The notes: generated by a model not told the origin, from the sequence alone. 64,000 bases of DNA from a virus (IMGVR_UViG_3300045391_000819:1-64000); one strand, 5' to 3'; counted from the stretch's first letter, positions 2,135 to 34,480 are shown. Numbers and translations: made by a program.

Positions 2135-2138
2135 TGTA

Positions 2139-3005: not shown

Positions 3006-3020
3006 TGTATGAATGATTTT

Positions 3021-6669: not shown

Positions 6670-6689
6670 GAGCTAATTTTGATGGCGGC
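6670..6689 (+). promoter_or_regulatory. copy 1 of 20-bp phage-specific motif
   Basis: GAGCTAATTTTGATGGCGGC. Confidence 0.6.
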
Positions 6690-6727
6690 GCATTGGCATT
6701 TCAATTTTATATTTTCAATCCTGTGTT

Positions 6728-6919
6728 ATGGAAAATGAATTTGTGGCTTATGCTGGTCTCATCGTGTCAGTGATGATAAAGAAGAGTGATGATAAGAATG
6801 TGAAGATGTATCTTGCTGATTCAGATAGGATAATCTATTTAGGACGTAGGTATGAGGATTGCGAAGACCTAATTAGGCATGGTTTTCCTTGGTATGTATA
6901 TCGTTTACCACAAAACTAA
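6728..6919 (+). CDS. hypothetical protein
   Basis: 63-aa ORF directly after motif copy 1. Confidence 0.6.
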   Translation: MENEFVAYAGLIVSVMIKKSDDKNVKMYLADSDRIIYLGRRYEDCEDLIRHGFPWYVYRLPQN

Positions 6920-7032
6920 ATACATGAAAAACGAACGTATTGCACTCACAATCATTGCTACTCTGTTTGGTAGCATTGTTATCTTTGCATTTGTTTATGC
7001 AATGTTTCATCCAATCATGTTAAAATAATGTT

Positions 7033-7251
7033 ATGAGCGTAACATTTCGCATTTATGAATCCCATTTTAAGGGATATGCATATAAAGCATGGCGTCATAT
7101 TGACCCACGTGGGGAAGAAAGTTCAAAGAAAGCATTTGAAGAATGGTGGGACAAAGTAAAGGTAGATAATTCAAAGACTTATAAAACGGATACATACGAT
7201 TCGCTTACAAGAATTTCAGAACGAATTAAAAATCAACGCATTACATCCTGA
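7033..7251 (+). CDS. hypothetical protein
   Basis: 72-aa ORF. Confidence 0.6.
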   Translation: MSVTFRIYESHFKGYAYKAWRHIDPRGEESSKKAFEEWWDKVKVDNSKTYKTDTYDSLTRISERIKNQRITS

Positions 7252-7359
7252 TAATCAGGCCATACAATACTGAGTTAATGATGGATGGAAACCTAGTTTG
7301 TGCTAGGTAAGTATTATCGGGATGTGATGCGTAGACTCATCTATAAAAACTTGTCAATA

Positions 7360-7650
7360 ATGAAATTATCAACCATTTTAAGAAAGATTGTATTCTTTCC
7401 ATTAATTGTTTTGGCAGTAATAAATCAAATATTGGGTATTCCAATCATGTTGATTTTAGTTGGGGTCATCGTGCATAAGGTATTGTTATTCATTACAATC
7501 ATTGCGCTTGTTATTACTCTTGATATAATCAGGCACAAATGGTTAATTAAAAATGGTTATGGTATGCCTGTTATAGGTCAATATATGAATAAAAAGAAGA
7601 TACAAGAAATAGAGGATAAGTTAGATGAGCATGAAGAAATGATAAGCTAA
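7360..7650 (+). CDS. membrane protein (start moved to MKLSTIL)
   Basis: Two long hydrophobic segments. Confidence 0.6.
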   Translation: MKLSTILRKIVFFPLIVLAVINQILGIPIMLILVGVIVHKVLLFITIIALVITLDIIRHKWLIKNGYGMPVIGQYMNKKKIQEIEDKLDEHEEMIS

Positions 7651-7666
7651 CATAAATCATTCGTTT

Positions 7667-7870
7667 ATGTGCAAGACCATACATTCTCCAGCAGGTATAA
7701 CCTTCAACCGCAAGTTATTCAAACAACTTAAGAAGGAATATCAACTCGCTATTGCACGACAACAAACCAAATTTATTTTCAAGAAACGTGAATTGGATAT
7801 TAGGTTTGCTATGTATCTTATCGAATATCTTGAGAAATGTTTCAATGAAATTTATCATCGCTATAAATAA
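7667..7870 (+). CDS. hypothetical protein
   Basis: 67-aa ORF. Confidence 0.6.
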   Translation: MCKTIHSPAGITFNRKLFKQLKKEYQLAIARQQTKFIFKKRELDIRFAMYLIEYLEKCFNEIYHRYK

Positions 7871-8156
7871 ATCTATATGGCTGAACGATTATTCTGTGCG
7901 ATATTTTTCACTGCAATCACAACCATATTATGGATTACTCATGTGCCTGAATTGTGTGCAGTTGCAATTGTAACTGGTTGTCTTGCATTTGGTTGTTGGA
8001 TTGCTGTCACTCGTTTACTTGATAAAAAATAGTTTATGACATTAATATCTTTCCCATTACCTGCAATCTTTGCATTGATTGTTGTTCTTGGTATGTTGGT
8101 TCTTGCTGTTGTTGGAGCTATAGAACAAAATAAACATGAGAGCGATCCGTTTGATT

Positions 8157-8176
8157 GAGGCAGTTTGCATGGCGGC
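8157..8176 (+). promoter_or_regulatory. copy 2 of 20-bp motif
   Basis: GAGGCAGTTTGCATGGCGGC. Confidence 0.55.
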
Positions 8177-8209
8177 GTATTAATAAATCTTTAATATATT
8201 TTCGTTCAT

Positions 8210-8533
8210 ATGGACAAGCAATTGATAATTAACGCATTGTCACCGTATCAGCACAAAGCTGTTCACATTGAAAAAGGTTGGGATTTTAAGGTGCAGGGTT
8301 CGCCACTCATTCCTGCTACTGGCGTGACTATGAAGCTCTATTTCAATGGAGAAGTGATTGATATATCATTTCGTCTTGGTGTCTCATCTGTTATTGCTTC
8401 GCTTAAAGGTCTTAAAGCTACTGAATTTATTGTGGAATATATTCATAATAACAGAGTCATTTGCACGCTTGGTTGTAAGAAAGTGCGTGACCATGTTGAA
8501 TCTAAACCTGTTCGTAATCCTGTAATGTTTTAA
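8210..8533 (+). CDS. hypothetical protein
   Basis: 107-aa ORF after motif copy 2. Confidence 0.7.
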   Translation: MDKQLIINALSPYQHKAVHIEKGWDFKVQGSPLIPATGVTMKLYFNGEVIDISFRLGVSSVIASLKGLKATEFIVEYIHNNRVICTLGCKKVRDHVESKPVRNPVMF

Positions 8534-8704
8534 TATGGAAAAGTTTTGCAAGATTTGTCTCTTTCTATCAAAGGTTTTTGTTGTGCTATATTTATTAGCA
8601 TTAATACCGTTGATGTACGGGGCAATTTCATTTAACCTATTTGTGAGCGTGGGAATACTCGCCCTTGCGTTTTGGATTGCTTCACTGTTCGATCAATTTT
8701 AATT

Positions 8705-8938
8705 ATGTTCGTATATCTGCTGAAAAGACAAGTAAATGATTTCGTATATCATGTGCATGAAATAAAGCATGGTGATATTCATTTCATTTGTTCTATTCCA
8801 TTCAAGGCTGGTGCTGGCCTGTCTCATCAATATATTATGGACGAAATGATTAAGCTAGGAAAGATGCCAGCTAAATACAAGGGAATGAAATGGGATAGCC
8901 CTGAAGTACAACGTATTCATGGATTTAAATCTATTTGA
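8705..8938 (+). CDS. hypothetical protein
   Basis: ATG at 8705 preferred to TTG at 8672. Confidence 0.6.
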   Translation: MFVYLLKRQVNDFVYHVHEIKHGDIHFICSIPFKAGAGLSHQYIMDEMIKLGKMPAKYKGMKWDSPEVQRIHGFKSI

Positions 8939-9308
8939 TATGACAAATGAATTTGGTTTAATAGGTAAAACTATTACTGAAATTAAAGGAGCCACTGATG
9001 GCAGTGATGTAATTGAATTTAAATTCTCAGACGGCGAGAAATATGAAATGTATCATCAGCAAGATTGTTGTGAGTCTGTGTATCTTCAAGATATTATTGG
9101 AGATATAAATGATTTGTTAAATTCCCCATTAACAATGTGCGAAGAAACAACAAGTAATGAAGAGCTTGGTATTGGTGATGAGTCAGATAGTTTTACATGG
9201 ACATTTTACAAGTTTGCAACCATTAAGGGTTACGTAACTCTCCGTTGGTTAGGTTCCTCAAATGGTTATTATTCTGAGTCAGTAACATTTGAAAAGAAAA
9301 GATCATGA
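8919..9308 (+). CDS. conserved phage hypothetical protein
   Basis: Motifs YH.QDCCESV and WTFYK...SNGYYSE that I recognise from many tailed-phage proteins. Confidence 0.75.
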   Translation: MDLNLFDMTNEFGLIGKTITEIKGATDGSDVIEFKFSDGEKYEMYHQQDCCESVYLQDIIGDINDLLNSPLTMCEETTSNEELGIGDESDSFTWTFYKFATIKGYVTLRWLGSSNGYYSESVTFEKKRS

Positions 9309-9442
9309 AAAAGATATTATTCATCCTGATATTTACAGCATTAGTGTTATTACATTTCGCATGCAAAGCACCATGTAAATTAGGATGTCCCCGACCCAAT
9401 GAAGCGTACCCTTCATACAGACGCTAATTAAATTGGAAGACT

Positions 9443-9685
9443 ATGAAGTTTAACCTTTGTCTCTTATTGTCTGGTATTGCATTCCTTATATGGGCATGTT
9501 CAATTCATGTACCTCAAGGACAATATCATTTGCAAGCGAAGAAAAGAATACAGACATTCAATCCAAGCTCGCCTCAAGCAACAATGCTTATCTTTAAAAA
9601 TGAATACGGACAGACAGTTACTAAGCGTGTGTTCGTAGATACATTTACGCTTGGTGATTGTTATTATTTTAAACGTAAACCATAA
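9443..9685 (+). CDS. small lipoprotein-like protein
   Basis: MK + hydrophobic + IWAC. Confidence 0.5.
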   Translation: MKFNLCLLLSGIAFLIWACSIHVPQGQYHLQAKKRIQTFNPSSPQATMLIFKNEYGQTVTKRVFVDTFTLGDCYYFKRKP

Positions 9686-9859
9686 CATATGTGGGCATTA
9701 CTATTATTTCCTATCATTATTCTATGTGCATATCTTATTATGCGTCATCCAACATGTGAGGATTGTGGTATTAAGATGGTAGATTGTGGTGAAGATGAGA
9801 AGTTTAAGTATATGTGCCCTCATTGCAATAAGTCAGTAACCTATAAATAAATTATATAT

Positions 9860-10579
9860 ATGAGACGAATTGGAATCGTCGGCTCAAGTACAGGTGAAGG
9901 TAGCTTTGGTACAACCAAAACGTATCTTACGTACATAGCACAGAGTTTAGATGCTATACCTGTTATCTTGTGTCCGAGTCATACAATTGATCGTAGTTTG
10001 GAATTGGTTATTATGCCCGGCGGTATGGATGTAAGTCCGACTATGTATGGTGCTGTGCCTCAGTATTACACAACACATACTGATGTATTTAAGCAGCACT
10101 TTGCAGATGTCAACTTACCTTTATATCTCGATGCAAACATTCCGGTCATGGGTATATGTCTGGGACACCAGATGATATGTGCCCACTTTGGTTCTGCGTT
10201 GACACAGCACATCAGTGAACATTCATTCGACAAGCGTGGAGAAGAGAATCATAAGGTGAAACTTACACCCGAAGGAAAGGAACTATTACAATTTGATAGA
10301 CCTGAAATTGGTGTTAATTCACATCATCATCAAGCTATCTTTAAGAATTCATTAGCTGATGGTTTAATACCGTTAGCCCTTGCGCCCGATCCGTTCGTAT
10401 CCAAACAGAAAGAATGGGATGACCCCATTATCGAAGCCTTTATTCATGAATCGTTACCAGCGGGTGGTGTCCAATGGCATCCCGAAGAATGGTATGACCC
10501 TGTAGCAAAATTGCTTGCTGAAAAATTAATAATCCGAGGAGCAAATGCCCGTAAAGCAAGCAAATTAAAATCAGCGTAG
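9860..10579 (+). CDS. class I glutamine amidotransferase-like / peptidase C26 (gamma-glutamyl hydrolase, PuuD-like)
   Basis: PGGMDV, GICLGHQ nucleophile elbow, VNSHHHQAI, GVQWHPE. Confidence 0.9.
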   Translation: MRRIGIVGSSTGEGSFGTTKTYLTYIAQSLDAIPVILCPSHTIDRSLELVIMPGGMDVSPTMYGAVPQYYTTHTDVFKQHFADVNLPLYLDANIPVMGICLGHQMICAHFGSALTQHISEHSFDKRGEENHKVKLTPEGKELLQFDRPEIGVNSHHHQAIFKNSLADGLIPLALAPDPFVSKQKEWDDPIIEAFIHESLPAGGVQWHPEEWYDPVAKLLAEKLIIRGANARKASKLKSA

Positions 10580-10596
10580 CCAATATCAATGGCCGC
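10577..10596 (+). promoter_or_regulatory. copy 3 of 20-bp motif
   Basis: TAGCCAATATCAATGGCCGC. Confidence 0.5.
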
Positions 10597-10638
10597 CAGC
10601 GTCAAAATGTACCGTGTATTTTCATTAGCGCATTTAAC

Positions 10639-11028
10639 ATGAAACAACTACTTAGGCCACTGCACGTAATAGTATTCATTGCTATTGCGTGCATTGCCTT
10701 GTGTCAAACTGATCGTATCCCGTTTTGGGTGCAATGTGCATTTGTTGGTACGTCATACATTATCGTTCTTGCCATTGCTATGGTATGGATTGATTATCCT
10801 GAATGGCGTCTATTACGCTCCATTTGTTGGCCTCTATTCCGTAACAAAGCATTGATGGATATTGAGGCTTTATCGTCTAAAAATTATACTGTTTATTGCG
10901 AAATATACAATGAAATTTCTAAAGGTAAAAAACATTTTGTATCAATGGGGTGGGAAGCCTTTTCTGCATGGAAGCATGATAGAATTGAGGATTTCTGGGT
11001 AAAGGCTAAATACCTCCGAGCTGTTTAG
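10639..11028 (+). CDS. membrane protein
   Basis: Two N-terminal hydrophobic segments. Confidence 0.65.
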   Translation: MKQLLRPLHVIVFIAIACIALCQTDRIPFWVQCAFVGTSYIIVLAIAMVWIDYPEWRLLRSICWPLFRNKALMDIEALSSKNYTVYCEIYNEISKGKKHFVSMGWEAFSAWKHDRIEDFWVKAKYLRAV

Positions 11029-11031
11029 TTT

Positions 11032-11217
11032 ATGGAAACAACTGATAAAAAACCCGATTTAGTCGATCTCGTAGAACGAATTGCATTTGAGATTCGTATG
11101 TTCGAGAAACTTAAAAGGACTTACAATAAAAAGCAACGGAGGCAAGAGATCGCACGCATTAATCGTTTAATTTCTGAATATAATTCAGTCATTCCAAAAG
11201 CAATGAAATTTATATGA
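11032..11217 (+). CDS. hypothetical protein
   Basis: 61-aa ORF. Confidence 0.55.
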   Translation: METTDKKPDLVDLVERIAFEIRMFEKLKRTYNKKQRRQEIARINRLISEYNSVIPKAMKFI

Positions 11218-11561
11218 AAATATTAGATAATGCACCAAGAATTGTTAGTCGTACGAAAGTCGAACACAATTCTGACAAATACATGAGAATAGAATTTGGT
11301 AACGGTCAAATTGATTGGAACCCCATCTCATATGATGGAGAATGTGATGAAGAGGCTCTGGAATTTGAATATCAAAAGGCAATCGGCAATAAACCAAGTA
11401 CAACAAGGTATAAACACATTCCAACGGGACTTGAATATGAATTTGTTGAAAAAGGAAAGACTGGAATGACGGTTATATTAAAACATGTTAATAGCAACTT
11501 CGAAATTGCAGCCGTATTTGTCCGACATTTAGGTGTAAAGGATTGGAAAGAAATAAAATAA
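11214..11561 (+). CDS. hypothetical protein
   Basis: 115-aa ORF, ATGA overlap. Confidence 0.65.
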   Translation: MKILDNAPRIVSRTKVEHNSDKYMRIEFGNGQIDWNPISYDGECDEEALEFEYQKAIGNKPSTTRYKHIPTGLEYEFVEKGKTGMTVILKHVNSNFEIAAVFVRHLGVKDWKEIK

Positions 11562-11878
11562 TTCATATGATTATCAATCAGTTCAATACTCCTGATATTT
11601 TATCTAAACATATCAGAGTAGACACTCAAAGAAATGGAAAGAGTATCTATACTCCATATTGTAGGATGGTTGGAAGTAAACAATTTTTTGTTTATAAAAA
11701 TCGTGATTTAGCAAGAAAAGAGGATTTTTATTTACAAGACGGTGGTTGGATGGGCGACCCAAATATATTCAAATCAGATAATGAAACATCAGCACGAGCT
11801 GGCTTGAATAAAGCTATTGTAAATTACAATAAAAAACTATCCGAGCTTATCGAGCATACAAAAATAATTGATTTATGA
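11543..11878 (+). CDS. hypothetical protein
   Basis: 111-aa ORF; start may be 11567. Confidence 0.6.
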   Translation: MERNKIIHMIINQFNTPDILSKHIRVDTQRNGKSIYTPYCRMVGSKQFFVYKNRDLARKEDFYLQDGGWMGDPNIFKSDNETSARAGLNKAIVNYNKKLSELIEHTKIIDL

Positions 11879-12321
11879 ATCAAGCAATTGCATTTGCCTT
11901 TTATAAACATGGTAAATTAATTGGTTATCGCCAAGATACAGTTGGTACAATTGGTGATATACCTAAGATTTATCATTATAGTGAAGGTCAAGTTGATACC
12001 GTTCTTAAAAACATTGACTTCGATGTTAGAGAGGGTGGAACATTTGGGAAAGCTTTAATGAATTGTAATCCTGAAGTTGCACAACTCATTGCCACTCGTG
12101 AAGATGAAGTGCATCAGTTGTTACAAGACAAACGAGCATTTGAAGTACGTGTTGTTGAATGCCCTGATTATCCACAAGAATTTGATGTGCCAACCGCATC
12201 TTATGTTTGCACTTGGGAATATCCAATGGCTGAAATAAAATCATGGGCACAAAACCCTGAAGAACATACTGTTCTCGAATCACATTTCTTTAGCATGGAT
12301 GGATTAATCCAACAAAATTAA
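11875..12321 (+). CDS. hypothetical protein
   Basis: 148-aa ORF, ATGA overlap. Confidence 0.7.
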   Translation: MNQAIAFAFYKHGKLIGYRQDTVGTIGDIPKIYHYSEGQVDTVLKNIDFDVREGGTFGKALMNCNPEVAQLIATREDEVHQLLQDKRAFEVRVVECPDYPQEFDVPTASYVCTWEYPMAEIKSWAQNPEEHTVLESHFFSMDGLIQQN

Positions 12322-12329
12322 TTATAATT

Positions 12330-12611
12330 ATGAATACTCAAGACTGGGTATCTGCAACAGTATTATGTATTGCAGTATACCTACTCATCATTTCCCGCCT
12401 CGCTGTGAAAAGTGTAACAAGATACGAAACCAGTTATCTTTGGATAAACATGGATGGGAGGACAGTTTCCCTACCATCACGCCCAAGCGGACAATATATT
12501 GTCATTGCTATAAAAAATAAATTTATATGCAATGAGTTCAAATCCTCAAAAGTAATTAATTGCAGGGTAACTCATTACACGTCTCCTTCAGAATTTTATC
12601 CAAAGCAGTAA
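12330..12611 (+). CDS. membrane-anchored hypothetical protein
   Basis: N-terminal hydrophobic helix. Confidence 0.55.
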   Translation: MNTQDWVSATVLCIAVYLLIISRLAVKSVTRYETSYLWINMDGRTVSLPSRPSGQYIVIAIKNKFICNEFKSSKVINCRVTHYTSPSEFYPKQ

Positions 12612-12732
12612 GCCTAAGTAGTGGTTGCAATGATTGTAGCTCCTTACTTATAAGCCTAATTTACTATCCTATTGAACCCAATTTGCCCCCTTCCTTATAG
12701 GTTTCCCCCATTGAATAATAAAAAAATAAGAT

Positions 12733-12954
12733 ATGAAATTTGAATTGGTCAATAATCTATCAAAAGTAAAAGCTTTTGAGGTAGGTAAGGCGTATATCCA
12801 TACGAATGGAATAGTTGTATGGTGTCTTAAATCCGAAGGTCAAACAGAAAGCACATTCGAAGGAATAGCTTTTAATGTTGCATTGCCTGCACCTACATTC
12901 TGGCCAAAGTCAGAGTTCATAGAATTTAAAGGCACATTTAGAATGTCATTTTGA
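12733..12954 (+). CDS. hypothetical protein
   Basis: 73-aa ORF. Confidence 0.6.
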   Translation: MKFELVNNLSKVKAFEVGKAYIHTNGIVVWCLKSEGQTESTFEGIAFNVALPAPTFWPKSEFIEFKGTFRMSF

Positions 12955-12972
12955 GCTAGTTTTTGTGGCCGC
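12953..12972 (+). promoter_or_regulatory. copy 4 of 20-bp motif
   Basis: GAGCTAGTTTTTGTGGCCGC. Confidence 0.6.
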
Positions 12973-13316
12973 GTGTTAATAAATCAATTGTATGCTTTCA
13001 ATCATAAAAAGACTATTGTACGTTATTGCACTCACTGTGTTTGGTGCGTGTGTTTGCCTTATATGTGTTGGCCAACTTTGGCTACCATATTGGATATTTA
13101 GCGGACGAAATGCATTAATGGATGCTGTTCATACAATGCAAAAAATTGATTCTACCCTTGCACCTTGACTCGGTTCTTGTAGAGGTCTTGTGGGACTTGC
13201 ACATAGCATTAAGATTGTAAGGTATGTTATACAACGGGTAGCTTAATGATATGGTGTACGAATTCACAAATATACTAACTCATCTATCATATTACAAAAT
13301 TGTTTAAGTTAAAACT

Positions 13317-13789: not shown

Positions 13790-14250
13790 TTGCAATTCCG
13801 TTATAAAGACCTACGAGTCTAGGAATTACTTAGTGAGTCTATAAGAATAGCGATTTATTGTGGAGAAGCATTTCCATTCCCTGATTGAGTTACGGTCATA
13901 CTCCGTATTGTGTATGCTTGCATATTCATGTCGGTATCATCCCGTCAGTAATCGTAGGGAGTCTATGGTTATGCCTCGCATAAGGTACTTAAACGGTAAT
14001 GATTCGTGTGCAGATTAGATGTACATGATACCCATGCCTGATGTTAATGAAGAGATAATAATTCTCGGAGGTATCAGGCGATAAGTTGCTGACCCAAAAC
14101 TGTGAGGGGAAAACATCAGTCCCGATATACCAGCTTGCTGGTACTTGTGCTTTGGTATGACGCTCATCCTGCGCAGATTTAACGATCTGCGAGGGTGAGT
14201 TAATACTATATTAGCCAGACAAAAAGGAGTGGGTAAAGCTCTTTTTATAT
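13790..14250 (+). ncRNA. candidate structured intergenic RNA
   Basis: About 460 nt with no credible ORF; long helices, e.g. CTCATCCT/AGGGTGAG enclosing CGCAGAT/ATCTGCG, and GCCTGAT/ATCAGGC. Confidence 0.4.
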
Positions 14251-14275
14251 CGTATTTAAAACAAAAACATATATC

Positions 14276-15082
14276 ATGAAATCATTAATTCTTTCGCTCT
14301 TAATGAGCGTATTATTCCTGAGCGGGTTTGCTCAATCCGCTGAGAACGATTGTGTTAAAGGGCAGGTAATAGGTATTACGCCCGATGGCAAAGTAATCGT
14401 TGAAATGACTAACAAAGAAAGCTGTAATGGTGATGTTGGTTACGATATTGGGACAGCCGATATTGCTAATAAATCTATAGCAGCAGGGGCATCAGATACA
14501 TTTGAAGTAACTATTAGTGGGCCGACCACAATATTATTAGAGAATAACACTGAATGTAATGGGAGTTGTGGCCCAAGCATTCATTTACCTCTATTAATAA
14601 GTATCGTCAACACTCCGGTTACTGGTCTTGAGACATTCAGTGCTAAGTGGAATGAGGATTCCGCTAAGATTTTTCTTGAATGGACTACCTATACTGAGGT
14701 AGATAATAAAGAATTTCGTGTGCTTAATCATGGCAATCCAGTTCCATTAGGAGTTGTGCCTACCAAAGCATTGAATGGTAACAGTGCGTTACCTCTTACA
14801 TATCGAGCGTCAATTGACCCGAAAAACTACGATGCTTTTGAGATATTAGGTATGGCTTTAAGTTGGAATGCGTTAGGACTTCTACTATTTGTGAGCCTAG
14901 TGTGGGCAATCATAGCAAGGAAAAGAGCAGCAACAATACTGATCTTGGCAGTTGGTCTTGCATTCATGGGTTGTAAGAAAGATAAGCAGACAGAATTTCA
15001 TGGAGAATATACACTCCAATTGCAACAGGTAGATAATTCAGGCACATATGATTATAGTCCTGAAAGAAAGGTAGTATTCTAA
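14276..15082 (+). CDS. secreted/membrane protein with Bacteroidota surface-protein Ig-like module
   Basis: Sec signal; PV..ETFSA...LEWTTYTEVDNKEF...GNS..LTY...QQVDNSGTYDYS pattern; internal hydrophobic hairpin ending GCKK. Confidence 0.7.
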   Translation: MKSLILSLLMSVLFLSGFAQSAENDCVKGQVIGITPDGKVIVEMTNKESCNGDVGYDIGTADIANKSIAAGASDTFEVTISGPTTILLENNTECNGSCGPSIHLPLLISIVNTPVTGLETFSAKWNEDSAKIFLEWTTYTEVDNKEFRVLNHGNPVPLGVVPTKALNGNSALPLTYRASIDPKNYDAFEILGMALSWNALGLLLFVSLVWAIIARKRAATILILAVGLAFMGCKKDKQTEFHGEYTLQLQQVDNSGTYDYSPERKVVF

Positions 15083-15099
15083 CACCAAACAATTATTGT

Positions 15100-15726: not shown

Positions 15727-15729
15727 AAA

Positions 15730-16325: not shown

Positions 16326-16339
16326 TTCAAAAACTTTAT

Positions 16340-16600
16340 ATGTCTAAAATCGTAGGCTTCATTATCGAGACAGATGAGATACAGAAAGGTGATTTGTTCA
16401 CTGACCCTGACATTCTCAAACCTAATGGGGATTTTTATTTCGTTATGTTTAATGTCTCGCTTGAGGATAAGCGTAGGTTAGCTACATATCAAAAGCCTTT
16501 TTTGAAGGCTGTATTTCATGAGAAATTTGTTACGGAATTAAAGGCTAAAAAAGGAATCAAGAAAGCTAATTTCGATGGCTTCACATTAACAAAACCTTAA
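16340..16600 (+). CDS. hypothetical protein (start moved to MSKIVGF)
   Basis: ATG after an A/T-rich leader. Confidence 0.6.
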   Translation: MSKIVGFIIETDEIQKGDLFTDPDILKPNGDFYFVMFNVSLEDKRRLATYQKPFLKAVFHEKFVTELKAKKGIKKANFDGFTLTKP

Positions 16601-16609
16601 TATATTTTC

Positions 16610-16897
16610 ATGCCCGTTCTATTCAATAAAGGCTTTAAATTTAAAGCTGGTGAGCTTGAATATGAGAAGATAACTGATGATGAATTTGGGTGGTGGGTCG
16701 CAACCAATTCTAAATATCTTGTTCAAATAAAAGAAGATAAAAAGGATATAAACTCATATGAGTTGCATCCTGAATCTAATAAGTTATTATATGATGAACA
16801 TGGTAAGCTACAACGATTCGGCTTTCGCTGGACTGACGATCAAATAAGACGTTATTATAATCCTAATAACGAACCTCCAAAAATATTGTTCAAATGA
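16610..16897 (+). CDS. hypothetical protein
   Basis: 95-aa ORF. Confidence 0.65.
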   Translation: MPVLFNKGFKFKAGELEYEKITDDEFGWWVATNSKYLVQIKEDKKDINSYELHPESNKLLYDEHGKLQRFGFRWTDDQIRRYYNPNNEPPKILFK

Positions 16898-19495: not shown

Positions 19496-19512
19496 ACTTT
19501 AAATAATTTATT

Positions 19513-20775
19513 ATGTCAGAACTGGATAAATATATCAAGTTAAAAGCATCATCTAAAACGTCTACGGTAAATCTCGAACCACTAGATGTAGGACAATTTA
19601 ATGGAAAGGCTATTTATAAAGCGGATGATGAAAGGGTTGGTTATGTAATTAATACAAAAGCGACCAAGTCTGCAAAGATGGGTATTGATACCTATATGGT
19701 AAATGCTGGCGCAGATCAAGCAGTATGTTTTTATAAGACTGGCCCGAACTATCCAGATTCTTATTTGGTACGATTCTTTAGCCGTAAAGGATTTGTGAGT
19801 GCAGCTTATAATTTTCACTCGACTGATATTATGTATGCAGGGGATGAATATCAATCAGTAGGGGGTGCTATTAAACTTCATTCACTTTCAGCCGAGAAAA
19901 GAATTGAGGAAAATAAAAAGAAATATGCTGAGGAATTAGAGAAGATAAATAAGCTATTACAACCAGTCGAAGAACCATTTAGTCAGATTAATTTCCTTCG
20001 TTCTAATATGTTTAAGAGTACACGTCAGATATTGCAGATGGTATGTACAAATGATGATGGTGCGCTCTATAAATATAACCAGTATTATGGTGATAGGGTA
20101 GAGGATATGATTTTAGCCGAGTCAGATTGCGGAGATTTCCTGTTATATCTTCCTAGTCAATGGGTTAATGCCTGTGGATATATGGAGGAAAGGGTTAAGA
20201 TGTGGATTAACTTTGTTAACAGTCTTAATTTTGATGTTCAGGTTGATTACTTAGGTGCGCAGCCTCGTGAAGAATTTAAGGAATATCCATCTGAGAAAGA
20301 TTACATACATGGTGTGGATTTTGCTTCAGTTATAAATAAGAATGAGTTTTATCTCGTGAAGATTAATGCTTGCGAATGTGGCTCTATAAATTATTTTATC
20401 TTCAAGCTAATCATATCTTTATATCATCAGTATACAAGTCATATCCCCGGAATTGCAATGCAGATAAAGGATGAATTGGGCAACTTAATATCTGATTGGG
20501 ATGCGTTATTGTTGGCATTGAATACTGATCTAAATAATTACTTCACCGAAGTACGTCAGCATCATCATCCTCGACCAAGATATATAAATATATTTACCAA
20601 GAAAAATAATCCTGATGCTGTTCTTTCGAAACTTTCCGGCCCAAGAGTAAGGCTTCCGCAAATCTTTGCATGTCAGGAGTTTACGGTGGAAAAATCTACT
20701 ACTATTGATAAGGCTTATGCTGAAAAGGATTTTAGGAAAGTCTATGAACTATTCCGTTCTTCAAATAAGAGCTAA
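19513..20775 (+). CDS. uncharacterised protein of the ligase cluster
   Basis: 420 aa; C-terminal half resembles 22916-23656. Confidence 0.8.
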   Translation: MSELDKYIKLKASSKTSTVNLEPLDVGQFNGKAIYKADDERVGYVINTKATKSAKMGIDTYMVNAGADQAVCFYKTGPNYPDSYLVRFFSRKGFVSAAYNFHSTDIMYAGDEYQSVGGAIKLHSLSAEKRIEENKKKYAEELEKINKLLQPVEEPFSQINFLRSNMFKSTRQILQMVCTNDDGALYKYNQYYGDRVEDMILAESDCGDFLLYLPSQWVNACGYMEERVKMWINFVNSLNFDVQVDYLGAQPREEFKEYPSEKDYIHGVDFASVINKNEFYLVKINACECGSINYFIFKLIISLYHQYTSHIPGIAMQIKDELGNLISDWDALLLALNTDLNNYFTEVRQHHHPRPRYINIFTKKNNPDAVLSKLSGPRVRLPQIFACQEFTVEKSTTIDKAYAEKDFRKVYELFRSSNKS

Positions 20776-20788
20776 TTTTAATGGCCGC
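20769..20788 (+). promoter_or_regulatory. copy 5 of 20-bp motif
   Basis: GAGCTAATTTTAATGGCCGC. Confidence 0.6.
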
Positions 20789-20852
20789 AAGTAAATAAAA
20801 CAACTACATATTTTCAATTATTTATTCACAATTTTAAATTTGAAATCTCTTT

Positions 20853-21665: not shown

Positions 21666-21666
21666 C

Positions 21667-21963: not shown

Positions 21964-21972
21964 ATAAACAAA

Positions 21973-22911: not shown

Positions 22912-22915
22912 GTTT

Positions 22916-24317: not shown

Positions 24318-24318
24318 T

Positions 24319-26373: not shown

Positions 26374-26426
26374 TCCCGCTGAGTGGGGACTCAGGTTTTA
26401 AAAAATTAAATAATACGGAGGGTAAA

Positions 26427-26702
26427 ATGTTCGAAACAGAAAGAGAACGTCAGGATAAAGAAGCTATTGCCGTTCTCAAAAGTGTTGTCGAGTATCTTGA
26501 TGACACAAGAGACGAAGCATCCAGACTTAACCGACTTGAAATTTCTCCCTTTGCAGAAAAGGCAGCAGAAATAATGTTCAAAGGGTTGGATGATATTAAA
26601 AATCAGCTAATTGATTTAGCTAAACTTCATAAATTCAATGTACTCAGTACTGAAATTAAGCGTTCTATGTCTTCTGCTCCCAACCGGAATTCCGTATATT
26701 AA
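26427..26702 (+). CDS. hypothetical helical protein
   Basis: 91-aa ORF with upstream GGAGG. Confidence 0.6.
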   Translation: MFETERERQDKEAIAVLKSVVEYLDDTRDEASRLNRLEISPFAEKAAEIMFKGLDDIKNQLIDLAKLHKFNVLSTEIKRSMSSAPNRNSVY

Positions 26703-26814
26703 GATTTTTAGGGCAAGAATCAGAGGTTTTCCTGATGATTTTAGGCAACTTCTAAGGGATACTAAGAAGTCATATATAAATATAAAACGTAATTTGATTA
26801 TTAAATACTATCAC

Positions 26815-28323
26815 ATGAACACGATGGTTTATTATTCAGACGATCCTAATCTTGGAATTAAAACAGTTACTACATTCTCTGGTAACAAGGAATATAGAAA
26901 GAACTGTAAAAAGATTAAGGATAATTACTATGTAATCAACAAGGAATGTTTTCTTATTGGTGACACATGGTATAGGATTGACTCTGGATTAATTGCAAAA
27001 GACTATGAGAAAGGGGATTGGTTTCTGACAAAGAATAGACCTAAAGATGTGGTGCAGGGATATGTAGATATGGAGCATAAGATATTGGGATTCTTTACCA
27101 GAAATCCATATAAGAATGTAATTATTGCATCCGGTAGCATGTATGTTTTTGATGAGGAGACTGCTGTTAAGGGTGGATATGTTGAGGATAAGTCAACAGG
27201 GAAATTCATCAGGAAAGGAGATGCAACCGATAAGATATATAATTCTCTTGACCATACTCATAAAGGATATAACATTGAGGATAATAAGGAAGAGTATCCG
27301 GCTAAGGTAAAACTGTATAATGAGTATCCTACTCAGATACTGGATGATATAAGGAATTATGCAGTTATGTTGGGAGATACTACATTTGGAGCAGAGCTTG
27401 AATGTCAGAAGGGATATTTACCAGATTATCTTCAGGCAAGAATGGGAGTAGTGGTGTGTCGTGATGGTTCATTGAAGGATGAGAATGGTAGACCCGGCCC
27501 TGAGTTTGTGACAATTCCTTTGAGTGGAGAGAAGGGACTCCAGACATTAGTGGATATATGTAAAGCATTGTCAATTAGGACAGAGATAGGTCTTAACTGT
27601 TCGCTTCACTTGCATTTGGGAAATATAAACACAGATAAAAGATTTATGGTTGGTTTATACAGGCTATGTCACAAGATTCAAAATGAAATTTTCCAGATGT
27701 TCCCGTATTATAAAGCTAATCCAGATGGCATCAAGCATAAAAATTATAATCAGAAACTTCCTACCTTACAGATTTATACATGTACTGATGAAGATAAAAA
27801 AGGATTGACAAAATTTATCGACGAATCATATCGAAAAATCTTTATGTGGCTTGCTGAGGGTGCATTGGAGCCAGAAAAGAATTCCAGTCGTAAGGTTTAT
27901 AAACATCCTCACCCTAACAAATGGGAGAGACACGCAAGATATTATTGGATGAACTCAATGAATGTTATATTCTCTGAACGTAATACAATTGAGTTCAGGT
28001 TGCATACACCAACCACAAATGCCCAAAAGGTATTTAACTGGTTGTTTATCTGTAATGCAATTGTGAGGTTTGCAGAAGAACATGCAGAGGAAATCATAAC
28101 AAGCAGGAAGAGAATAAGAATGTCAGAAATCCTGAATTATTATGCTTCCAAGTTCGGAGATAAAGGAGTAGAGCTGTCAGAATATCTGATTGGGTATGTA
28201 CGTTCCCGTAAGGATTCGTTCTATTGTGATTATCAAAAGGGTAACTATGTGAGTGAATGGGATATTACGCAAGATAAGCAGTACGTTTTTCCATTTAAAG
28301 GAATCGAAAATATATTCAAATGA
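26815..28323 (+). CDS. putative amidoligase (Amidoligase_2-like); start moved to MNTMVYY
   Basis: TFGAELE, DGSL, EFVT.PL, CSLHLHLG, N.MN......TIEFR.H. Confidence 0.85.
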   Translation: MNTMVYYSDDPNLGIKTVTTFSGNKEYRKNCKKIKDNYYVINKECFLIGDTWYRIDSGLIAKDYEKGDWFLTKNRPKDVVQGYVDMEHKILGFFTRNPYKNVIIASGSMYVFDEETAVKGGYVEDKSTGKFIRKGDATDKIYNSLDHTHKGYNIEDNKEEYPAKVKLYNEYPTQILDDIRNYAVMLGDTTFGAELECQKGYLPDYLQARMGVVVCRDGSLKDENGRPGPEFVTIPLSGEKGLQTLVDICKALSIRTEIGLNCSLHLHLGNINTDKRFMVGLYRLCHKIQNEIFQMFPYYKANPDGIKHKNYNQKLPTLQIYTCTDEDKKGLTKFIDESYRKIFMWLAEGALEPEKNSSRKVYKHPHPNKWERHARYYWMNSMNVIFSERNTIEFRLHTPTTNAQKVFNWLFICNAIVRFAEEHAEEIITSRKRIRMSEILNYYASKFGDKGVELSEYLIGYVRSRKDSFYCDYQKGNYVSEWDITQDKQYVFPFKGIENIFK

Positions 28324-28520
28324 GTAAAGGTTATAGGAAAAGAAGAACTAGGAAACAAACAGTCAAATCAGCTCGTAAACAAGCCAAACTAGGATATGGG
28401 GAAACAAATAAGAACATTAACACTTTACGTAAATTGGAACAAGCCAAAGAAGAGGAAAGAAATACAAATATTAACTTGTTATTAACAAATAATTTAGTAT
28501 GTTTGCTCCTTAATTCATAA
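28320..28520 (+). CDS. small basic protein
   Basis: 66 aa, K/R-rich. Confidence 0.5.
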   Translation: MSKGYRKRRTRKQTVKSARKQAKLGYGETNKNINTLRKLEQAKEEERNTNINLLLTNNLVCLLLNS

Positions 28521-28526
28521 GGAGTT

Positions 28527-29084
28527 ATGTACGATTCACCAGAGGAAGAATATTTTGCTGAGTGGCTTGCTGAGTTACAGCAACAAGGTTATGTGAAAAG
28601 TTGGGAAAGAGTTACAACCCCAATTCCTTTAACAAGAGGACTAAAGCACAACTATATACAAACCATAATCCTAAAGACTAAGACTAAGACAGTACCAAAA
28701 AGTCAGGTGTTATTGGCATCCTCCGAATATACACCTGACTTCGGTATTGTGTGGGATGATGGAGCTAAGAACATTTTCTTCCAACCTATTTATGATGAAC
28801 AAAAACTTATTTGTCCTTTCTTGGCTGATTTGAAGGACGGGGAGTATTATTCTGTGGTTGAAATCAAACCAGTGTTTGATCGTCATAACATGACTCGTGC
28901 ATTCATAAGTAATCAGAAGTATATATGGGACAAGTATGGATTATATGTTAACCTTATTGTTGTTCCTGATATATTTTTGGAGACGTTCTCACCGATTAGT
29001 TTTTTTAAAACGCCTACAGGATTGGATAAGAAGTTTGCTAAAGGTAGGCCATTAACACTACAACAATTTAATGACAAAATCTGA
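28527..29084 (+). CDS. PD-(D/E)XK endonuclease (possible Holliday-junction resolvase)
   Basis: DS.EE, YTPDF, VEIK. Confidence 0.7.
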   Translation: MYDSPEEEYFAEWLAELQQQGYVKSWERVTTPIPLTRGLKHNYIQTIILKTKTKTVPKSQVLLASSEYTPDFGIVWDDGAKNIFFQPIYDEQKLICPFLADLKDGEYYSVVEIKPVFDRHNMTRAFISNQKYIWDKYGLYVNLIVVPDIFLETFSPISFFKTPTGLDKKFAKGRPLTLQQFNDKI

Positions 29085-29691
29085 CAGCGATATTAAAAAG
29101 ATTACGAGCGTAACATTGAATGAGATTAATTCTCACTTCAGTAATACCAGTACATATTCAACTTTATTCCTGATACCTGCTTTTGATATTGAACTTAATT
29201 CAAAGGTGTTTGAAATGTTTGAGAACGCTTTTGTTGACCATCAGGATTTCATGCACTTATATGAACGACCCTTGTTCTGTTTGTTCAAGGTGGGTGAAAA
29301 AGAAATTAGTAAGTTTCAGGAAATAACTCCATTACTTATAAGTAATCCAAACTTTGTTTATACATATTGTGCAGGACGTACAAATAATTTCTATCTATTC
29401 ATGTATGTATTTGAATGTCCTGAACCATACAAAATTGATTACGATAAATTCTTAGAAGGTAAATACTCCGAGTTTTCGCTTGCACTGAAATCTAAGTTCA
29501 ACAATAAAGTAATGCTTACCAATGGTGTTCAGGATGAATCACCTATATATGGTGCGCTATTTAAAACATCTGATATGAGAAGAAAGATGGAAGCTATTGT
29601 TGGTCAGCGTATTGATGTTAATGGAGAGTTTTGGCCTGCTCCCAAAGACGAATTTGAAATCTTTAATTATACAAAAAATGATACTAACTAA
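29071..29691 (+). CDS. conserved phage hypothetical protein
   Basis: 206 aa, F.EGKYS motif. Confidence 0.75.
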   Translation: MTKSDSDIKKITSVTLNEINSHFSNTSTYSTLFLIPAFDIELNSKVFEMFENAFVDHQDFMHLYERPLFCLFKVGEKEISKFQEITPLLISNPNFVYTYCAGRTNNFYLFMYVFECPEPYKIDYDKFLEGKYSEFSLALKSKFNNKVMLTNGVQDESPIYGALFKTSDMRRKMEAIVGQRIDVNGEFWPAPKDEFEIFNYTKNDTN

Positions 29692-29920: not shown

Positions 29921-29943
29921 CGCCCCTAGAATGGGGCGTTTTT
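29921..29943 (+). terminator. intrinsic terminator
   Basis: CGCCCC/GGGGCG stem plus U tract. Confidence 0.7.
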
Positions 29944-29950
29944 ATTTAAA

Positions 29951-31253: not shown

Positions 31254-31255
31254 AT

Positions 31256-31831: not shown

Positions 31832-31857
31832 CAATATAGTTGTAGGGAGGTATATTT

Positions 31858-32049
31858 ATGAATAGAATAGAAGAACTTGAAGAAGTTATTATACAGGCTA
31901 TAAAAGCTTGGCAGAAACTTCCAGGAGGACAGCGTAACTCTGTTCAAGATACAGAAAAGTGGCTTATAAAAGAAATGGGGCCAGCTATTAATAAGCTAAG
32001 AAAATCAGTAAATGTTAAAATTCCTAAAAGTACTGAGGATTATATATGA
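31858..32049 (+). CDS. hypothetical protein
   Basis: 63-aa ORF. Confidence 0.6.
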   Translation: MNRIEELEEVIIQAIKAWQKLPGGQRNSVQDTEKWLIKEMGPAINKLRKSVNVKIPKSTEDYI

Positions 32050-32255
32050 GTAACTATCCAGAAGAAATAGTAAAGCAAGCTGAAGAGCTTATAGAGGAAC
32101 ACAAAGAATTTGCTGACTGGGATGACCCATTTGCTAATGCTGTAAGAGCAGCAATAGTAAGCTGCAAGTTTGCCAATGACTATCATATAAAGCTTATAGG
32201 GTTAACAAACAAGGATATAAATCAAATAAAAGCATATTTGGAGGGATTGTTATGA
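32046..32255 (+). CDS. hypothetical protein
   Basis: 69-aa ORF, ATGA overlap. Confidence 0.6.
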   Translation: MSNYPEEIVKQAEELIEEHKEFADWDDPFANAVRAAIVSCKFANDYHIKLIGLTNKDINQIKAYLEGLL

Positions 32256-32396
32256 ATAAGCGTGAAAAAATAGGCTATTTAATATATGCTATAGCCTTAG
32301 CCTGCATTCCAATTGGATTCTTTTGGATACCTATTATATATATCCAAATATTTTTATTCATTATTGCAATTTATTTAATTACTGGTTAAACAATAT

Positions 32397-32657
32397 ATGG
32401 GAGGGAGTATGAGTAGAATCTTCAAAAAAGAAATAAAGGCTCTTCTACCTAAAGAGTGGTTTGATTGTACAAGAGCTAATGGTATTGGACTAGCTGAAAA
32501 TTCCTATTCTTTATTCACTCTAACCAATGGAAAGTCGTTTACTCTACTTACTGCCTCTCCAGCAGTTATAAATAAACTATCTAAGAAGTTTAGTATTAAG
32601 TATGAAAAGCATTTTTGGATGCATTATTCTCAATATATAATAACAAGAAAATCATGA
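32397..32657 (+). CDS. hypothetical protein
   Basis: 86-aa ORF. Confidence 0.55.
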   Translation: MGGSMSRIFKKEIKALLPKEWFDCTRANGIGLAENSYSLFTLTNGKSFTLLTASPAVINKLSKKFSIKYEKHFWMHYSQYIITRKS

Positions 32658-32953
32658 GTAAAGAAATAAAAATAGGAGACTTAGTAGAAACTTGCTCCCT
32701 TATGCCCGGAGTAGTGATGAAAATTAATGGTAGAGATATAGAGGCTAGAATGCTTGATATAGATGAATACAAGACTAATGATTATGCTTGTTGTTCTCTT
32801 GACCATTGTGGGATAATAAAACTTACTGCTGAACAAGCTAAACAAAGGCTCATTCTTGGTAAGGAAAAATTAACAGAAATCTGGAGAAGAGAAGGAGAGT
32901 GGGAAACTTTTGAGGATTATCAAAAATTAATTGAGGAAGCTTTAAAATCATGA
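32654..32953 (+). CDS. hypothetical protein (start moved to MSKEIKIG)
   Basis: ATGA overlap; repeated gene-start sequence. Confidence 0.65.
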   Translation: MSKEIKIGDLVETCSLMPGVVMKINGRDIEARMLDIDEYKTNDYACCSLDHCGIIKLTAEQAKQRLILGKEKLTEIWRREGEWETFEDYQKLIEEALKS

Positions 32954-33249
32954 GTAAAGATAAAATACCTACAGCAGAAGAATTTTTAAAAGAAAAAGAC
33001 TTTATAAACTTTACTATCGGTAAGGCTAAAGGAAATGAAAGATGCTCTGATATGATGATAGCATACGCTAAACTCTGTGTAGAAGCAGCTTTAAAGGCAG
33101 TGATAAAGAACACAGGCTTTATTCAAATGCAGGCTGAACATCTTAATTCTGAGGAGTATAGACCTTTCATTACTGCTGAAGATGGTACAATTTGGGTAAT
33201 TGATGAACAGGCTATCAGAAATGCTTATCCTCTTGATAATATAAAATAA
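32950..33249 (+). CDS. hypothetical protein
   Basis: Begins MSKDKIP. Confidence 0.7.
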   Translation: MSKDKIPTAEEFLKEKDFINFTIGKAKGNERCSDMMIAYAKLCVEAALKAVIKNTGFIQMQAEHLNSEEYRPFITAEDGTIWVIDEQAIRNAYPLDNIK

Positions 33250-33255
33250 TTTAAT

Positions 33256-33471
33256 ATGAAAGAATTCACATTCAGAGTTACCCAGCCTCTATCTGGATAC
33301 TATGAGGGCGAAGTAACTGTAAAAGCGTCTTCAGAGAAAGCTGCAAGAAATAAGCTTAATAAAATGACTCAGGAAGAGCTTGAGGAGATATGCACTTCTT
33401 GGGAACAGGGAGATGAAATGAGCGCTGATGGAGATATTGAAATTGATGAACTTAAATCAGAAGAATCATGA
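33256..33471 (+). CDS. small acidic hypothetical protein
   Basis: 71 aa; V.A.SE..A motif. Confidence 0.65.
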   Translation: MKEFTFRVTQPLSGYYEGEVTVKASSEKAARNKLNKMTQEELEEICTSWEQGDEMSADGDIEIDELKSEES

Positions 33472-33734
33472 GTAAAGATAAAATACCTGTAGCTGAGAAA
33501 AAGGCTAAAGGTATTGAAGAAGGCCCGCCTATATGGGTAGAAAGCGTATTGTCCAATGAAGACTGGAAGGATACCTACAAAAAGTATCCTAACACACACA
33601 ATCTCAAGGAGAAGCCCGCCTTCTTTAAAAGTGATTATGAATGGCGTTATCGAATGGGGGCTGGTATTCCTCAAGATCAGATAGACCTTATTACAAAAAG
33701 ATTTGATACGATGCTTAAAATGGTAAATATATGA
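33468..33734 (+). CDS. hypothetical protein
   Basis: Begins MSKDKIP. Confidence 0.65.
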   Translation: MSKDKIPVAEKKAKGIEEGPPIWVESVLSNEDWKDTYKKYPNTHNLKEKPAFFKSDYEWRYRMGAGIPQDQIDLITKRFDTMLKMVNI

Positions 33735-34438
33735 ATGATTCAATTAATACGAAGAAACTGAATCCAGATTGGTTTCATAAAATCTTTGCTGAACGTAGAA
33801 GGGTTGATGGTAAACCTACTGAATATGAAACAGTTAAGGCTAAATCGAGAATGCGTGGAATTTTGGAATATAAGAATGCTATTCAGGACTATCTTTTGAG
33901 TAATGAGGATAAACTTAGTAATCATATCAATCCTACTGTATCTTTTGCCCGTAGAGAAATGATTAGTGAAATGATAGATATTCTGTATAACATTAGTCCT
34001 AATAAACCTGTAAAGATTGATAATCAATTTACACGTCTAACGGATGAATTTGCAGACGGTAATAGGGTAATTTTGATTTATCAAAGATGCGATTGGAATA
34101 ATACTCCAGAACCCGGATGGTATGACAATTATGGGGTTAAGAAATATACTTCTATTCATACCAGTGATTACCATAAGAATATGGATGCCTTAATGCCTGT
34201 GGTTAAATGTGTTAAAGCGGATATTATAATTGCTCAAAGGGAAGCTGAGTTTGATGATAACTATGTCATGCAAAGAAACTATCAGTTCCTTAATGTTTTG
34301 GATTTGTGGGCAGATACAGTATTGGCAATCAAAGGATTAAAGGGTGCGAAACTTGCGCCTGCTTTTGTAGAAAAACCTACATCAAAATTATATTTGTCTT
34401 ATGCAGAATTACAGGAAAGAGCAAAGGCAAATAGATAA
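33731..34438 (+). CDS. hypothetical protein
   Basis: 235 aa. Confidence 0.75.
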   Translation: MNDSINTKKLNPDWFHKIFAERRRVDGKPTEYETVKAKSRMRGILEYKNAIQDYLLSNEDKLSNHINPTVSFARREMISEMIDILYNISPNKPVKIDNQFTRLTDEFADGNRVILIYQRCDWNNTPEPGWYDNYGVKKYTSIHTSDYHKNMDALMPVVKCVKADIIIAQREAEFDDNYVMQRNYQFLNVLDLWADTVLAIKGLKGAKLAPAFVEKPTSKLYLSYAELQERAKANR

Positions 34439-34451
34439 TTTGGATGGCAGC
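34432..34451 (+). promoter_or_regulatory. copy 6 of 20-bp motif
   Basis: TAGATAATTTGGATGGCAGC. Confidence 0.5.
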
Positions 34452-34480
34452 GAAAATAAAAAATAAGTACATTCTATCAT

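Follow-up and report, generated by a model that had tools for sequence, protein, structure and literature searches.

The 64,000-nucleotide stretch IMGVR_UViG_3300045391_000819:1-64000 (the window, bases 1-64000 of a contig of 131,721 bp with a 69-bp terminal repeat and 36% G+C, derived from an uncultivated phage) carries eight copies of an ungapped element of about 48-52 nt, all on the plus strand between 5.4 and 34.5 kb and oriented in the same direction as the genes. The existence of the element, the number of its copies and their strand, their placement and geometry, and the fact that it is unique are reported below as observed. Promoter function of one kind or another is probable, and the reading that we prefer, with about even confidence, is that the eight elements form a phage-specific class of middle or delayed-early promoters, used by the host RNA polymerase together with a phage specificity factor. 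Such a class would drive the left plus-strand arm of the genome, with its accessory genes, an amide-ligase block and the replication module.

A two-block element at the heads of gene runs

Two conserved blocks make up the element. Block A, a 20-mer occupying columns 1-20, has the consensus GAGCTAATTTTGATGGCNGC, with A2, G3, A6, T8, T10, T14, G15, C17 and C20 invariant. It is followed by an A-rich spacer of 18 nt (columns 21-38), which has an AAA core at columns 29-31 and a C at column 33 in six of the eight copies, and then by block C (columns 39-48), a TAyATTTTCA-like sequence in which T41, T44 and T46 are invariant. Mean pairwise identity amounts to 73% in columns 1-20, 46% in columns 21-38 and 76% in columns 39-48, and because it drops to 27% in the upstream flank and to 34% downstream, the borders of the element are sharp. 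Not one insertion or deletion is found among the eight copies even though the spacer is only 46% identical, as is expected where the spacing between -35 and -10 contacts is constrained.

The initial annotation, made from the sequence of the window, had described six plus-strand copies of a 20-bp motif. All six matches are exact; the 20-bp pattern has no match in any of 100 dinucleotide shuffles, and in the whole genome (131,721 bp) the same six are its only matches, with none antisense. The 20-mer is conserved as described, but it is only part of the longer unit, and the six copies, all real, are part of a family of eight: a weight matrix built on the six sites scores 36.2 bits at 5380 and 35.0 bits at 16563. 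The next-best score genome-wide is 12.4 bits (at 54431), the best minus-strand position reaches 0.1, and the maximum over 20 random genomes is 14.5. An independent weighted window-pair search recovered the family de novo, beside a family of canonical promoters. Collagen-like repeats dominated the output of a self-BLAST repeat search. Scored by itself, block A reaches 24-32 bits at the eight sites; it is found nowhere else, and block C invariably follows at an unchanged distance. Block C by itself is not distinctive.

Each copy lies at a gene boundary and heads a run of tightly packed or overlapping open reading frames (ORFs), in an arm of which only 10% is non-coding (Table 1). The runs headed by the eight copies start at 5427, 6728, 8210, 10639, 12992, 16610, 20853 and 34481. 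Seven copies lie in or border the left 20 kb, and the eighth heads the conserved replication module. The placement given in the initial annotation holds up well: in five copies (those at 8157, 10577, 12953, 20769 and 34432) the element overlaps the stop codon of a credible ORF upstream, the copy at 20769 heads the COOH.NH2-ligase gene, and the claim of an ATG 20-65 nt further on fits downstream starts at columns 48, 48, 50, 54, 59, 63 and 85. For the copy at 12953 the start-codon candidates are an ATG at column 40 and a TTG at column 64. Columns 1-3 of copy 4 form the TAG stop of a GATase/Peptidase_C26 gene (9860-10579), columns 1-38 of copy 6 lie within the 3' end of the upstream ORF 16238-16600, and copy 2 (6670) overlaps only a dubious 53-residue ORF, which covers a terminator hairpin. 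For most copies, no terminator was detected between the element and the gene before it.

Relation to the host promoter grammar

The primary sigma factor of Bacteroidota hosts is divergent, and their promoters follow a -33/-7 grammar. In Flavobacterium johnsoniae the -7 element is numbered T-12 A-11 T-8 T-7 T-6 G-5, a gap of 4-5 nt separates it from the start site, the mean leader is 33 nt, AT-rich signals lie at -18/-28, and G at -10 is virtually absent (PMC6847099). About ten strong canonical promoters of the form TTG-N19/20-TAnnTTTG are present in the phage genome, mostly on the minus strand at the genome ends, at the tRNA blocks and before glycosyltransferase genes, and other canonical promoters precede RNR, UvsX and several late genes. 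Judged from these ten or so promoters, and from the -7 boxes before late genes, the phage clearly appears to use the host polymerase, and the grammar itself suggests a host of the Bacteroidota type for this 132-kb phage.

The eight elements share part of this grammar. Aligned with the F. johnsoniae -7 element, columns 39-46 carry T-12 in five of the eight copies, A-11 in seven, T-8 in six, T-7 in all eight and T-6 in seven, and the A-rich spacer recalls the AT-rich signals at -18/-28 of F. johnsoniae promoters (PMC6847099). In contrast, G-5, near-invariant in the host, is T in every copy, followed by C (7/8) and A (7/8). TTG at -33 is likewise absent; TGGCNGC, ending 18 nt upstream of the box, occupies the position that sigma region 4 usually contacts, and the rest of block A extends to about -50, so that some 20 bp of specific sequence is found upstream that canonical sigma-A promoters do not have. 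The absence of both G-5 (0/8) and TTG sets the element apart from canonical Bacteroidota sigma-A promoters. The initial annotation had called the motif unlike the host consensus, which is true of the upstream block and of the loss of G-5 but not of the downstream block, which resembles the host -7 box. The overall arrangement, TGGCNGC, 18 nt and TAHHTTT with no indels in the eight copies, has the two-block layout of sigma-70-type promoters with their spacer of 16-19 nt. In sigma-54 promoters a GG and a GC doublet are separated by about 10 nt (-24/-12); no conserved GC doublet lies at that distance after the TGGC of the element (it would be expected at about columns 26-27, with TTGC at 24-27), and the only conserved GC is at columns 19-20.

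These features suggest a model in which the host multisubunit RNA polymerase would read block C (columns 39-46, TAHHTTT) as a weakened -7/-10 element, while block A, which spans the -35/-33 position (TGGCNGC, at 18 nt from block C) and a further 15 bp or so, would stand in place of the host -33 element and be read by a phage-encoded factor: an activator, a sigma-remodelling protein or a very divergent sigma. Since the host G-5 is missing in all copies, the promoters would be weak without the factor, which would place them in a delayed-early or middle class. More tentatively, and with rather more doubt than belief, we consider that the system may represent a previously undescribed redirection of the Bacteroidota sigma-A polymerase, in which a phage protein unlike MotA, AsiA or any sigma would read a -35 element of about 20 bp and the loss of G-5 would make the promoters factor-dependent. 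That protein would probably be among the ORFan products of the left 20 kb.

The host-type promoters of the genome show several features of their own. Among the ten or so strong ones the spacer is conserved as TTGGtAaTTTCAgaAAaTTTT.CG before the box; such conservation is unusual and may stem from recent duplication or from an extra binding factor. In four canonical promoters the box is followed by exactly 4 nt and then by ATG, a layout that predicts leaderless mRNAs with A as +1, and the spacing agrees with the 4-5 nt gap of F. johnsoniae (PMC6847099). The TAnnTTTG-4 nt-ATG arrangement recurs in the window at 2134-2169(-) and 49196-49233(+), elsewhere in the genome at 123288(-) and 131075(-), and in the relatives L056 (about 6030), L279 (about 6085) and L278 (about 12895). 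By its recurrence it implies that leaderless mRNAs may be a regular design in this phage group, unlike F. johnsoniae, whose transcripts are mostly leadered. A host-type promoter at 28476-28505(+), before the gene 28527-29084 for a 185-residue protein, occupies a spot whose orthologues are conserved in L054, L056 and L279; the plus arm is thus not devoid of host-type promoters.

Predicted start site and proposed specificity factor

Several points weigh against a factor-dependent promoter class. Promoter activity, a start site at about columns 48-52, timing and the existence of a factor are all things that we infer. The host rule, a start 5 nt past the box, puts the start of the element at column 51, yet two downstream ORFs begin at column 48 and one at column 50, with no nearby in-frame alternative start by eye. 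A second -7-like box (columns 5-12, TArTTTnG) lies inside block A. Block A has no dyad symmetry, whereas classical dimeric activator sites have dyads. No relative carries the motif, so comparative support is missing. The searches for a factor were also negative: sigma regions 2, 4 and 4_2 (PF04542, PF04545, PF08281) had no six-frame match in searches that included positive controls; the MotA C-terminal domain (PF09158) and AsiA (PF09010) had no six-frame match at E<=1, the MotA activation domain not being searched separately; and Pfam and PHROG scans of about 45 early and left-arm ORFs gave no match suggesting a regulator.

The early start codons could be explained in two ways. Transcription may start at the conserved A of column 48, giving leaderless mRNAs of the design that the phage uses elsewhere, or the first genes beginning at columns 48 and 50 may depend on read-through. 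The box inside block A offers a different solution, in which the host polymerase acts alone: the true -7 element would be the box at columns 5-12 (box 1), the start would lie at about column 17, and TGGCNGC, the A-rich stretch and block C would form a conserved 5' leader, in which block C (box 2) could be a sigma-dependent pause or factor-loading site, or could aid translation. We consider this unlikely. It is true that, counted over the six key positions of the host element, box 1 fits in 36 of 48 cells and box 2 in 33 of 48, and that at 6674 box 1 is perfect: it reads TAATTTTG; the resulting leaders of about 31 nt for the two column-48 ORFs, near the 33-nt mean of F. johnsoniae (PMC6847099), would also remove the start-codon problem. 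Yet in three of the eight copies box 1 has a G at -10, virtually absent from host promoters (PMC6847099), and it has G-5 in only three; there is no conservation upstream of column 1 (27% identity); the canonical promoters of the phage show no GC-rich, strongly conserved segment around +1; and a structureless leader leaves the rigid, indel-free spacing unexplained.

With regard to a factor-dependent class, the initial annotation had listed a phage sigma factor or activator among the conceivable recognisers; this is the reading we favour, although no such gene was recognised, and a very divergent phage sigma is a possible reader. Individual proteins were examined as candidates. For the 207-residue protein encoded at 5851-6474, in the first motif-driven unit, a set of 5.8 billion proteins contained no homologue, and the predicted structure was too poor to be used (pLDDT 36). 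A basic protein of 122 residues gave a marginal model (pLDDT 56) and no significant PDB fold match, and a basic early protein of 74 residues is a poor candidate, as its homologues occur in phage contigs of which the one fetched lacks the motif. Atlas look-ups of proteins of 208 and 268 residues were uninformative on a role as the factor. The early minus-strand cluster (111-3122) has strong canonical promoters and encodes small ORFans, of which three contain signal-peptide or membrane segments, and no protein large enough for a full sigma. It is a matter of speculation that the copy-1 unit, which is closed by a terminator and encodes the 122-residue basic protein and the 207-residue ORFan, might be the home of an autoregulated factor.

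The possibility of a phage-encoded RNA polymerase

The leading idea of the initial annotation was recognition by a phage-encoded or virion-delivered RNA polymerase, which would have to be of a kind unrecognisable by sequence. Block A, a specific sequence of some 20 bp that is confined to this phage, would suit such an enzyme, and there is room for one among the proteins of the virion arm, where a 3143-residue ORF (78622-88053) and several other large proteins have no assigned function. The searches speak otherwise. For T7-like polymerases, a six-frame search with PF00940 found no match, a weak negative since the control genomes also gave none and the search therefore lacked a positive control; PHROG and Pfam scans of the large ORFs found no T7-like polymerase either. 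Rpb1 and Rpb2 domains had no six-frame match in searches that included positive controls. The 3143-residue protein has no Pfam, PHROG or PDB sequence match, contains no DxDxD, and did not match the N4 or crAss-type virion polymerases in the PDB sequence search. The pattern D[FYWLIVM]DxD is absent from ten of the eleven largest minus-strand ORFs; its sole match, DVDPD in a 927-residue protein (90752-93535), was judged to be due to chance and was rejected as a DFDxD-type motif. The 3143-residue ORF (minus strand) adjoins the collagen-like fibre gene, and its product is rich in K, E and L, with a Gly/Ala-rich N-terminus.

The architecture of the element points in the same direction. T7-like promoters form one contiguous block of about 23 bp (-17 to +6), and N4 early promoters, read by a giant virion polymerase, carry a conserved hairpin with a stem of 5-7 bp and a loop of 3 nt. 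The present element consists of two blocks at a fixed 18-nt spacing over a span of about 48 nt, not a single block, and in a search for an N4-type hairpin it showed no consensus pairs, only a 4-bp stem in five of the eight copies with no compensatory changes. Transcripts of the crAss-type virion polymerase share no common motif (bioRxiv 10.1101/2020.03.07.982082). Two blocks, an 18-nt spacer and a host-like -7 box are typical of sigma-dependent polymerases, and because the box is host-like the host enzyme is favoured as the reader; the canonical host promoters elsewhere in the genome also remove the need for an injected enzyme. We regard a phage polymerase as improbable. Of the interpretation originally proposed, the promoter function is supported by strand, operon heads, two-block geometry and the lack of RNA structure, but the virion or phage RNA polymerase finds no support.

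Possible signals in RNA or in DNA

An RNA-processing factor had also been proposed, and the element may be considered more generally as a signal acting in RNA: either a linear site at which a phage endoribonuclease would act on read-through transcripts, or an operator of translation close to start codons, for which T4 RegB and RegA are the models. Most copies have no detected terminator upstream and hence would be transcribed through, and the start codon is 0-15 nt away from block C in five of the eight (six if the column-40 ATG is used at 12953). However, RNAalifold yields zero consensus pairs, single-sequence folds are no more stable than those of shuffled sequences (z -0.05 to +1.5), and no conserved or stable structure emerges. 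Block A is 28-65 nt from the start codons, the start codon of copy 7 lies 37 nt past block C, and the distance from block C to the start varies while that between blocks A and C is fixed. We keep this reading at low weight and think it very unlikely. Two further candidates were rejected: a small hairpin with a 4-bp stem (columns 3-6 with 14-17), which forms in five of the eight copies and is uncompensated in the three that deviate, and a mini-ORF beginning ATG-GCN-GC (Met-Ala-Ala, with the variable base at the wobble position), which runs for 4-18 codons, has no common end and in one case lies inside another gene.

Finally, the element could be a repeat that functions at the level of DNA, with a main role outside transcription, either as a recombination substrate that shuffles gene cassettes in a hypervariable arm, a reading modelled on the promoter-stem-loop repeats of T4-type phages, or as a site bound by a replication or partition protein. 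Of the eight copies, seven do lie in or border the left 20 kb, where nearly all ORFs are without homologue in the compared relatives. Such a role leaves the -7-like box, the strict gene orientation and the exact placement at block heads unexplained, the similarity stops sharply at the borders of the element, and shuffling is more likely a side effect of repeated promoters than their function. To this reading we assign the least weight of all.

Relatives and sequence collections

The closest cultured phage is distant, the best tblastn identity of its polymerase being 37%; among uncultivated phages, relatives of 100-135 kb share a syntenic replication arm, and their polymerases are 38-61% identical. 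A motif scan of the genome and its relatives, suggested as a check in the initial annotation, gave the eight copies and no others in the genome but none in any relative: the element is absent from 80 DNA-polymerase-anchored IMG/VR loci (1.46 Mb), from five ENA/JGI/Logan contigs whose polymerases are 59-61% identical, from three whole related genomes that were scanned and from five related records examined by pattern search. Relatives carry canonical host-type boxes in the homologous arm. Pattern scans of IMG/VR and of JGI metagenomes returned scattered single matches in unrelated DNA, in about chance numbers; a 133-kb contig with a look-alike site proved unrelated. In 185,579 bacterial and archaeal species genomes, only scattered single matches in unrelated DNA at chance level are found among the matches listed, and a host regulon using the motif is therefore unsupported. 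By these scans, the element appears to be specific to this phage lineage.

The relative G003 (the IMG/VR record of L058) carries a different repeat, the palindrome TTATAACAAAATTTTGTGATAA, in more than ten copies, often paired and adjacent to promoters or tRNA blocks; a dimeric regulator of the G003 lineage probably uses it as its operator.

Genome setting

The minus strand carries the genes at 0.1-3.1 kb and again those from 55.4 kb to the end of the contig; in the region between, from about 3.3 to 55.4 kb, the genes are on the plus strand. The plus arm (coding density 90%) encodes many small ORFans, a GATase, gamma-glutamyl cyclotransferases and the COOH.NH2-ligase/amidoligase/amidotransferase block, after which comes the replication module with DNA polymerase, helicases, primase, RNR and UvsX. 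The far minus arm contains 25 tRNA genes (ARAGORN), glycosyltransferases and structural genes, including the collagen-like fibre and the 3143-residue protein.

The left 20 kb (111-20800, the early minus-strand cluster and the first 17 kb of the plus arm) is a hypervariable accessory region, in which only two ORFs have homologues in the compared relatives by tblastn. Its G+C-richer non-coding gaps (4115-4375, 4925-5105, 12605-12733, 14010-14275 and 15720-16000) contain many short complementary stretches and possibly encode structured RNAs. Similar stretches occur upstream of the polymerase gene in relatives; no Rfam family matches these gaps or any other part of the window. The Atlas model of the 268-residue protein (14276-15082, plus strand) is weakly like the passenger parts of surface proteins sorted by the type IX secretion system in Bacteroidota and Ignavibacteriota (TM 0.35-0.45), a weak hint at the host phylum that would agree with the promoter grammar. 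The candidate host-type promoter upstream of copy 8 possibly forms tandem promoters with it.

Table 1. Positions of the element copies and of other transcription signals; positions up to 64,000 are those of the window, and the last row refers to the relative G003.
Feature	Position	Strand	Remarks
Copy 1 (added here)	5380..5431	+	ATG of 122-residue ORF 5427-5795 at column 48; heads terminator-closed two-gene unit; 36.2 bits
Copy 2	6670..6721	+	140 nt past intrinsic terminator; ATG at column 59 (6728)
Copy 3	8157..8208	+	head of tight block 8210-10579; ATG at column 54
Copy 4	10577..10628	+	most divergent, leave-one-out score 15.0 bits; heads block 10639-12611
Copy 5	12953..13004	+	over TGA stop of ORF 12733-12954; then small hydrophobic ORF
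Copy 6 (added here)	16563..16614	+	ATG of ORF 16610-16897 at column 48; heads tight block 16610-20775; 35.0 bits
Copy 7	20769..20820	+	best consensus match; heads COOH.NH2-ligase/amidoligase block 20853-29691
Copy 8	34432..34483	+	heads conserved replication module: 62-residue ORF (ATG at column 50), then DNA polymerase, helicases, primase
Possible degenerate ninth copy	54431..54482	+	in 3' end of glycosyltransferase gene; both blocks recognisable at right spacing; 12.4 bits, not significant
Intrinsic terminator	6499..6530	+	12-bp stem and T-rich tail; closes copy-1 unit, precedes copy 2
Strong terminator	29921-29938		closes ligase block
Candidate host-type promoter	34365..34396	+	TTG-N21-TATATTTG, 36 nt upstream of copy 8; about half of such plus-strand matches expected by chance
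Strong host-type promoters, window	65-95, 2139-2169, 3120-3150, 47367-47397, 60032-60062	-	TTG and TAnnTTTG
Strong host-type promoters, genome	122331, 123288, 123738, 124564, 131075	-	TTG and TAnnTTTG
Palindrome TTATAACAAAATTTTGTGATAA in G003	e.g. 7760-7870, 74860-74920, 90200-90290, 106860-107000

Comparison with known systems

At present the element is a well-defined regulatory motif, predicted in a single metagenomic genome, and its main value is as a pointer to a putative polymerase-redirecting factor. Two separable promoter grammars lie side by side in one genome and offer a testable handle on a possible new factor of this kind, and an orthogonal promoter/factor pair might serve genetic tools in Bacteroidota. 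To our knowledge, little is known about the timing of transcription in Bacteroidota phages.

Mu Mor and C and P2 Ogr are small activators that bind at about -55 to -30, at promoters lacking a -35 element, and recruit the host polymerase; their sites are dyad-symmetric and they act as dimers. The present element may be of a similar kind, and differs in that block A is without a dyad. Closer in host is the crAss-like Cellulophaga phage phi14:2, whose extended tripartite middle promoters are read by the host polymerase (bioRxiv 10.1101/2020.03.07.982082). In that Bacteroidota phage, as proposed for the present one, a long conserved multi-block motif lies upstream of middle genes and has the host polymerase as reader (bioRxiv 10.1101/2020.03.07.982082). 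In phi14:2, compared by description only, the blocks resemble ordinary -35/-10 elements and are served by the sigma-70 holoenzyme without a phage factor, whereas here the block in the -35 position is unlike any host element; furthermore, no DFDxD virion polymerase and no close cultured polymerase relative were found.

The T4 middle promoters combine the host -10 element with a phage box, the MotA box (a/t)3TGCTTtA, of 9-10 bp, centred at -30 and located 12 +/- 1 bp from the -10 element (PMC2988021). The preferred reading shares several traits with them: as in T4, which has no polymerase of its own, a host -10-type element would be kept, a phage element would replace the -35, and the promoters would serve prereplicative and replication genes alongside host-type promoters (PMC2988021). 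A -7-like box is present in all eight copies here, but G-5 in none. The phage element is also longer (about 20 bp), its GC core lies 18 nt from the box, and neither the sequence nor the spacing of the MotA box is matched; there is no MotA or AsiA homologue, and the host is of the Bacteroidota type with its -33/-7 sigma-A grammar. The most economical interpretation is a phage-specific promoter class for the host RNA polymerase with a phage-encoded specificity factor, in which the element would work like the T4 middle promoters without being a member of that family.

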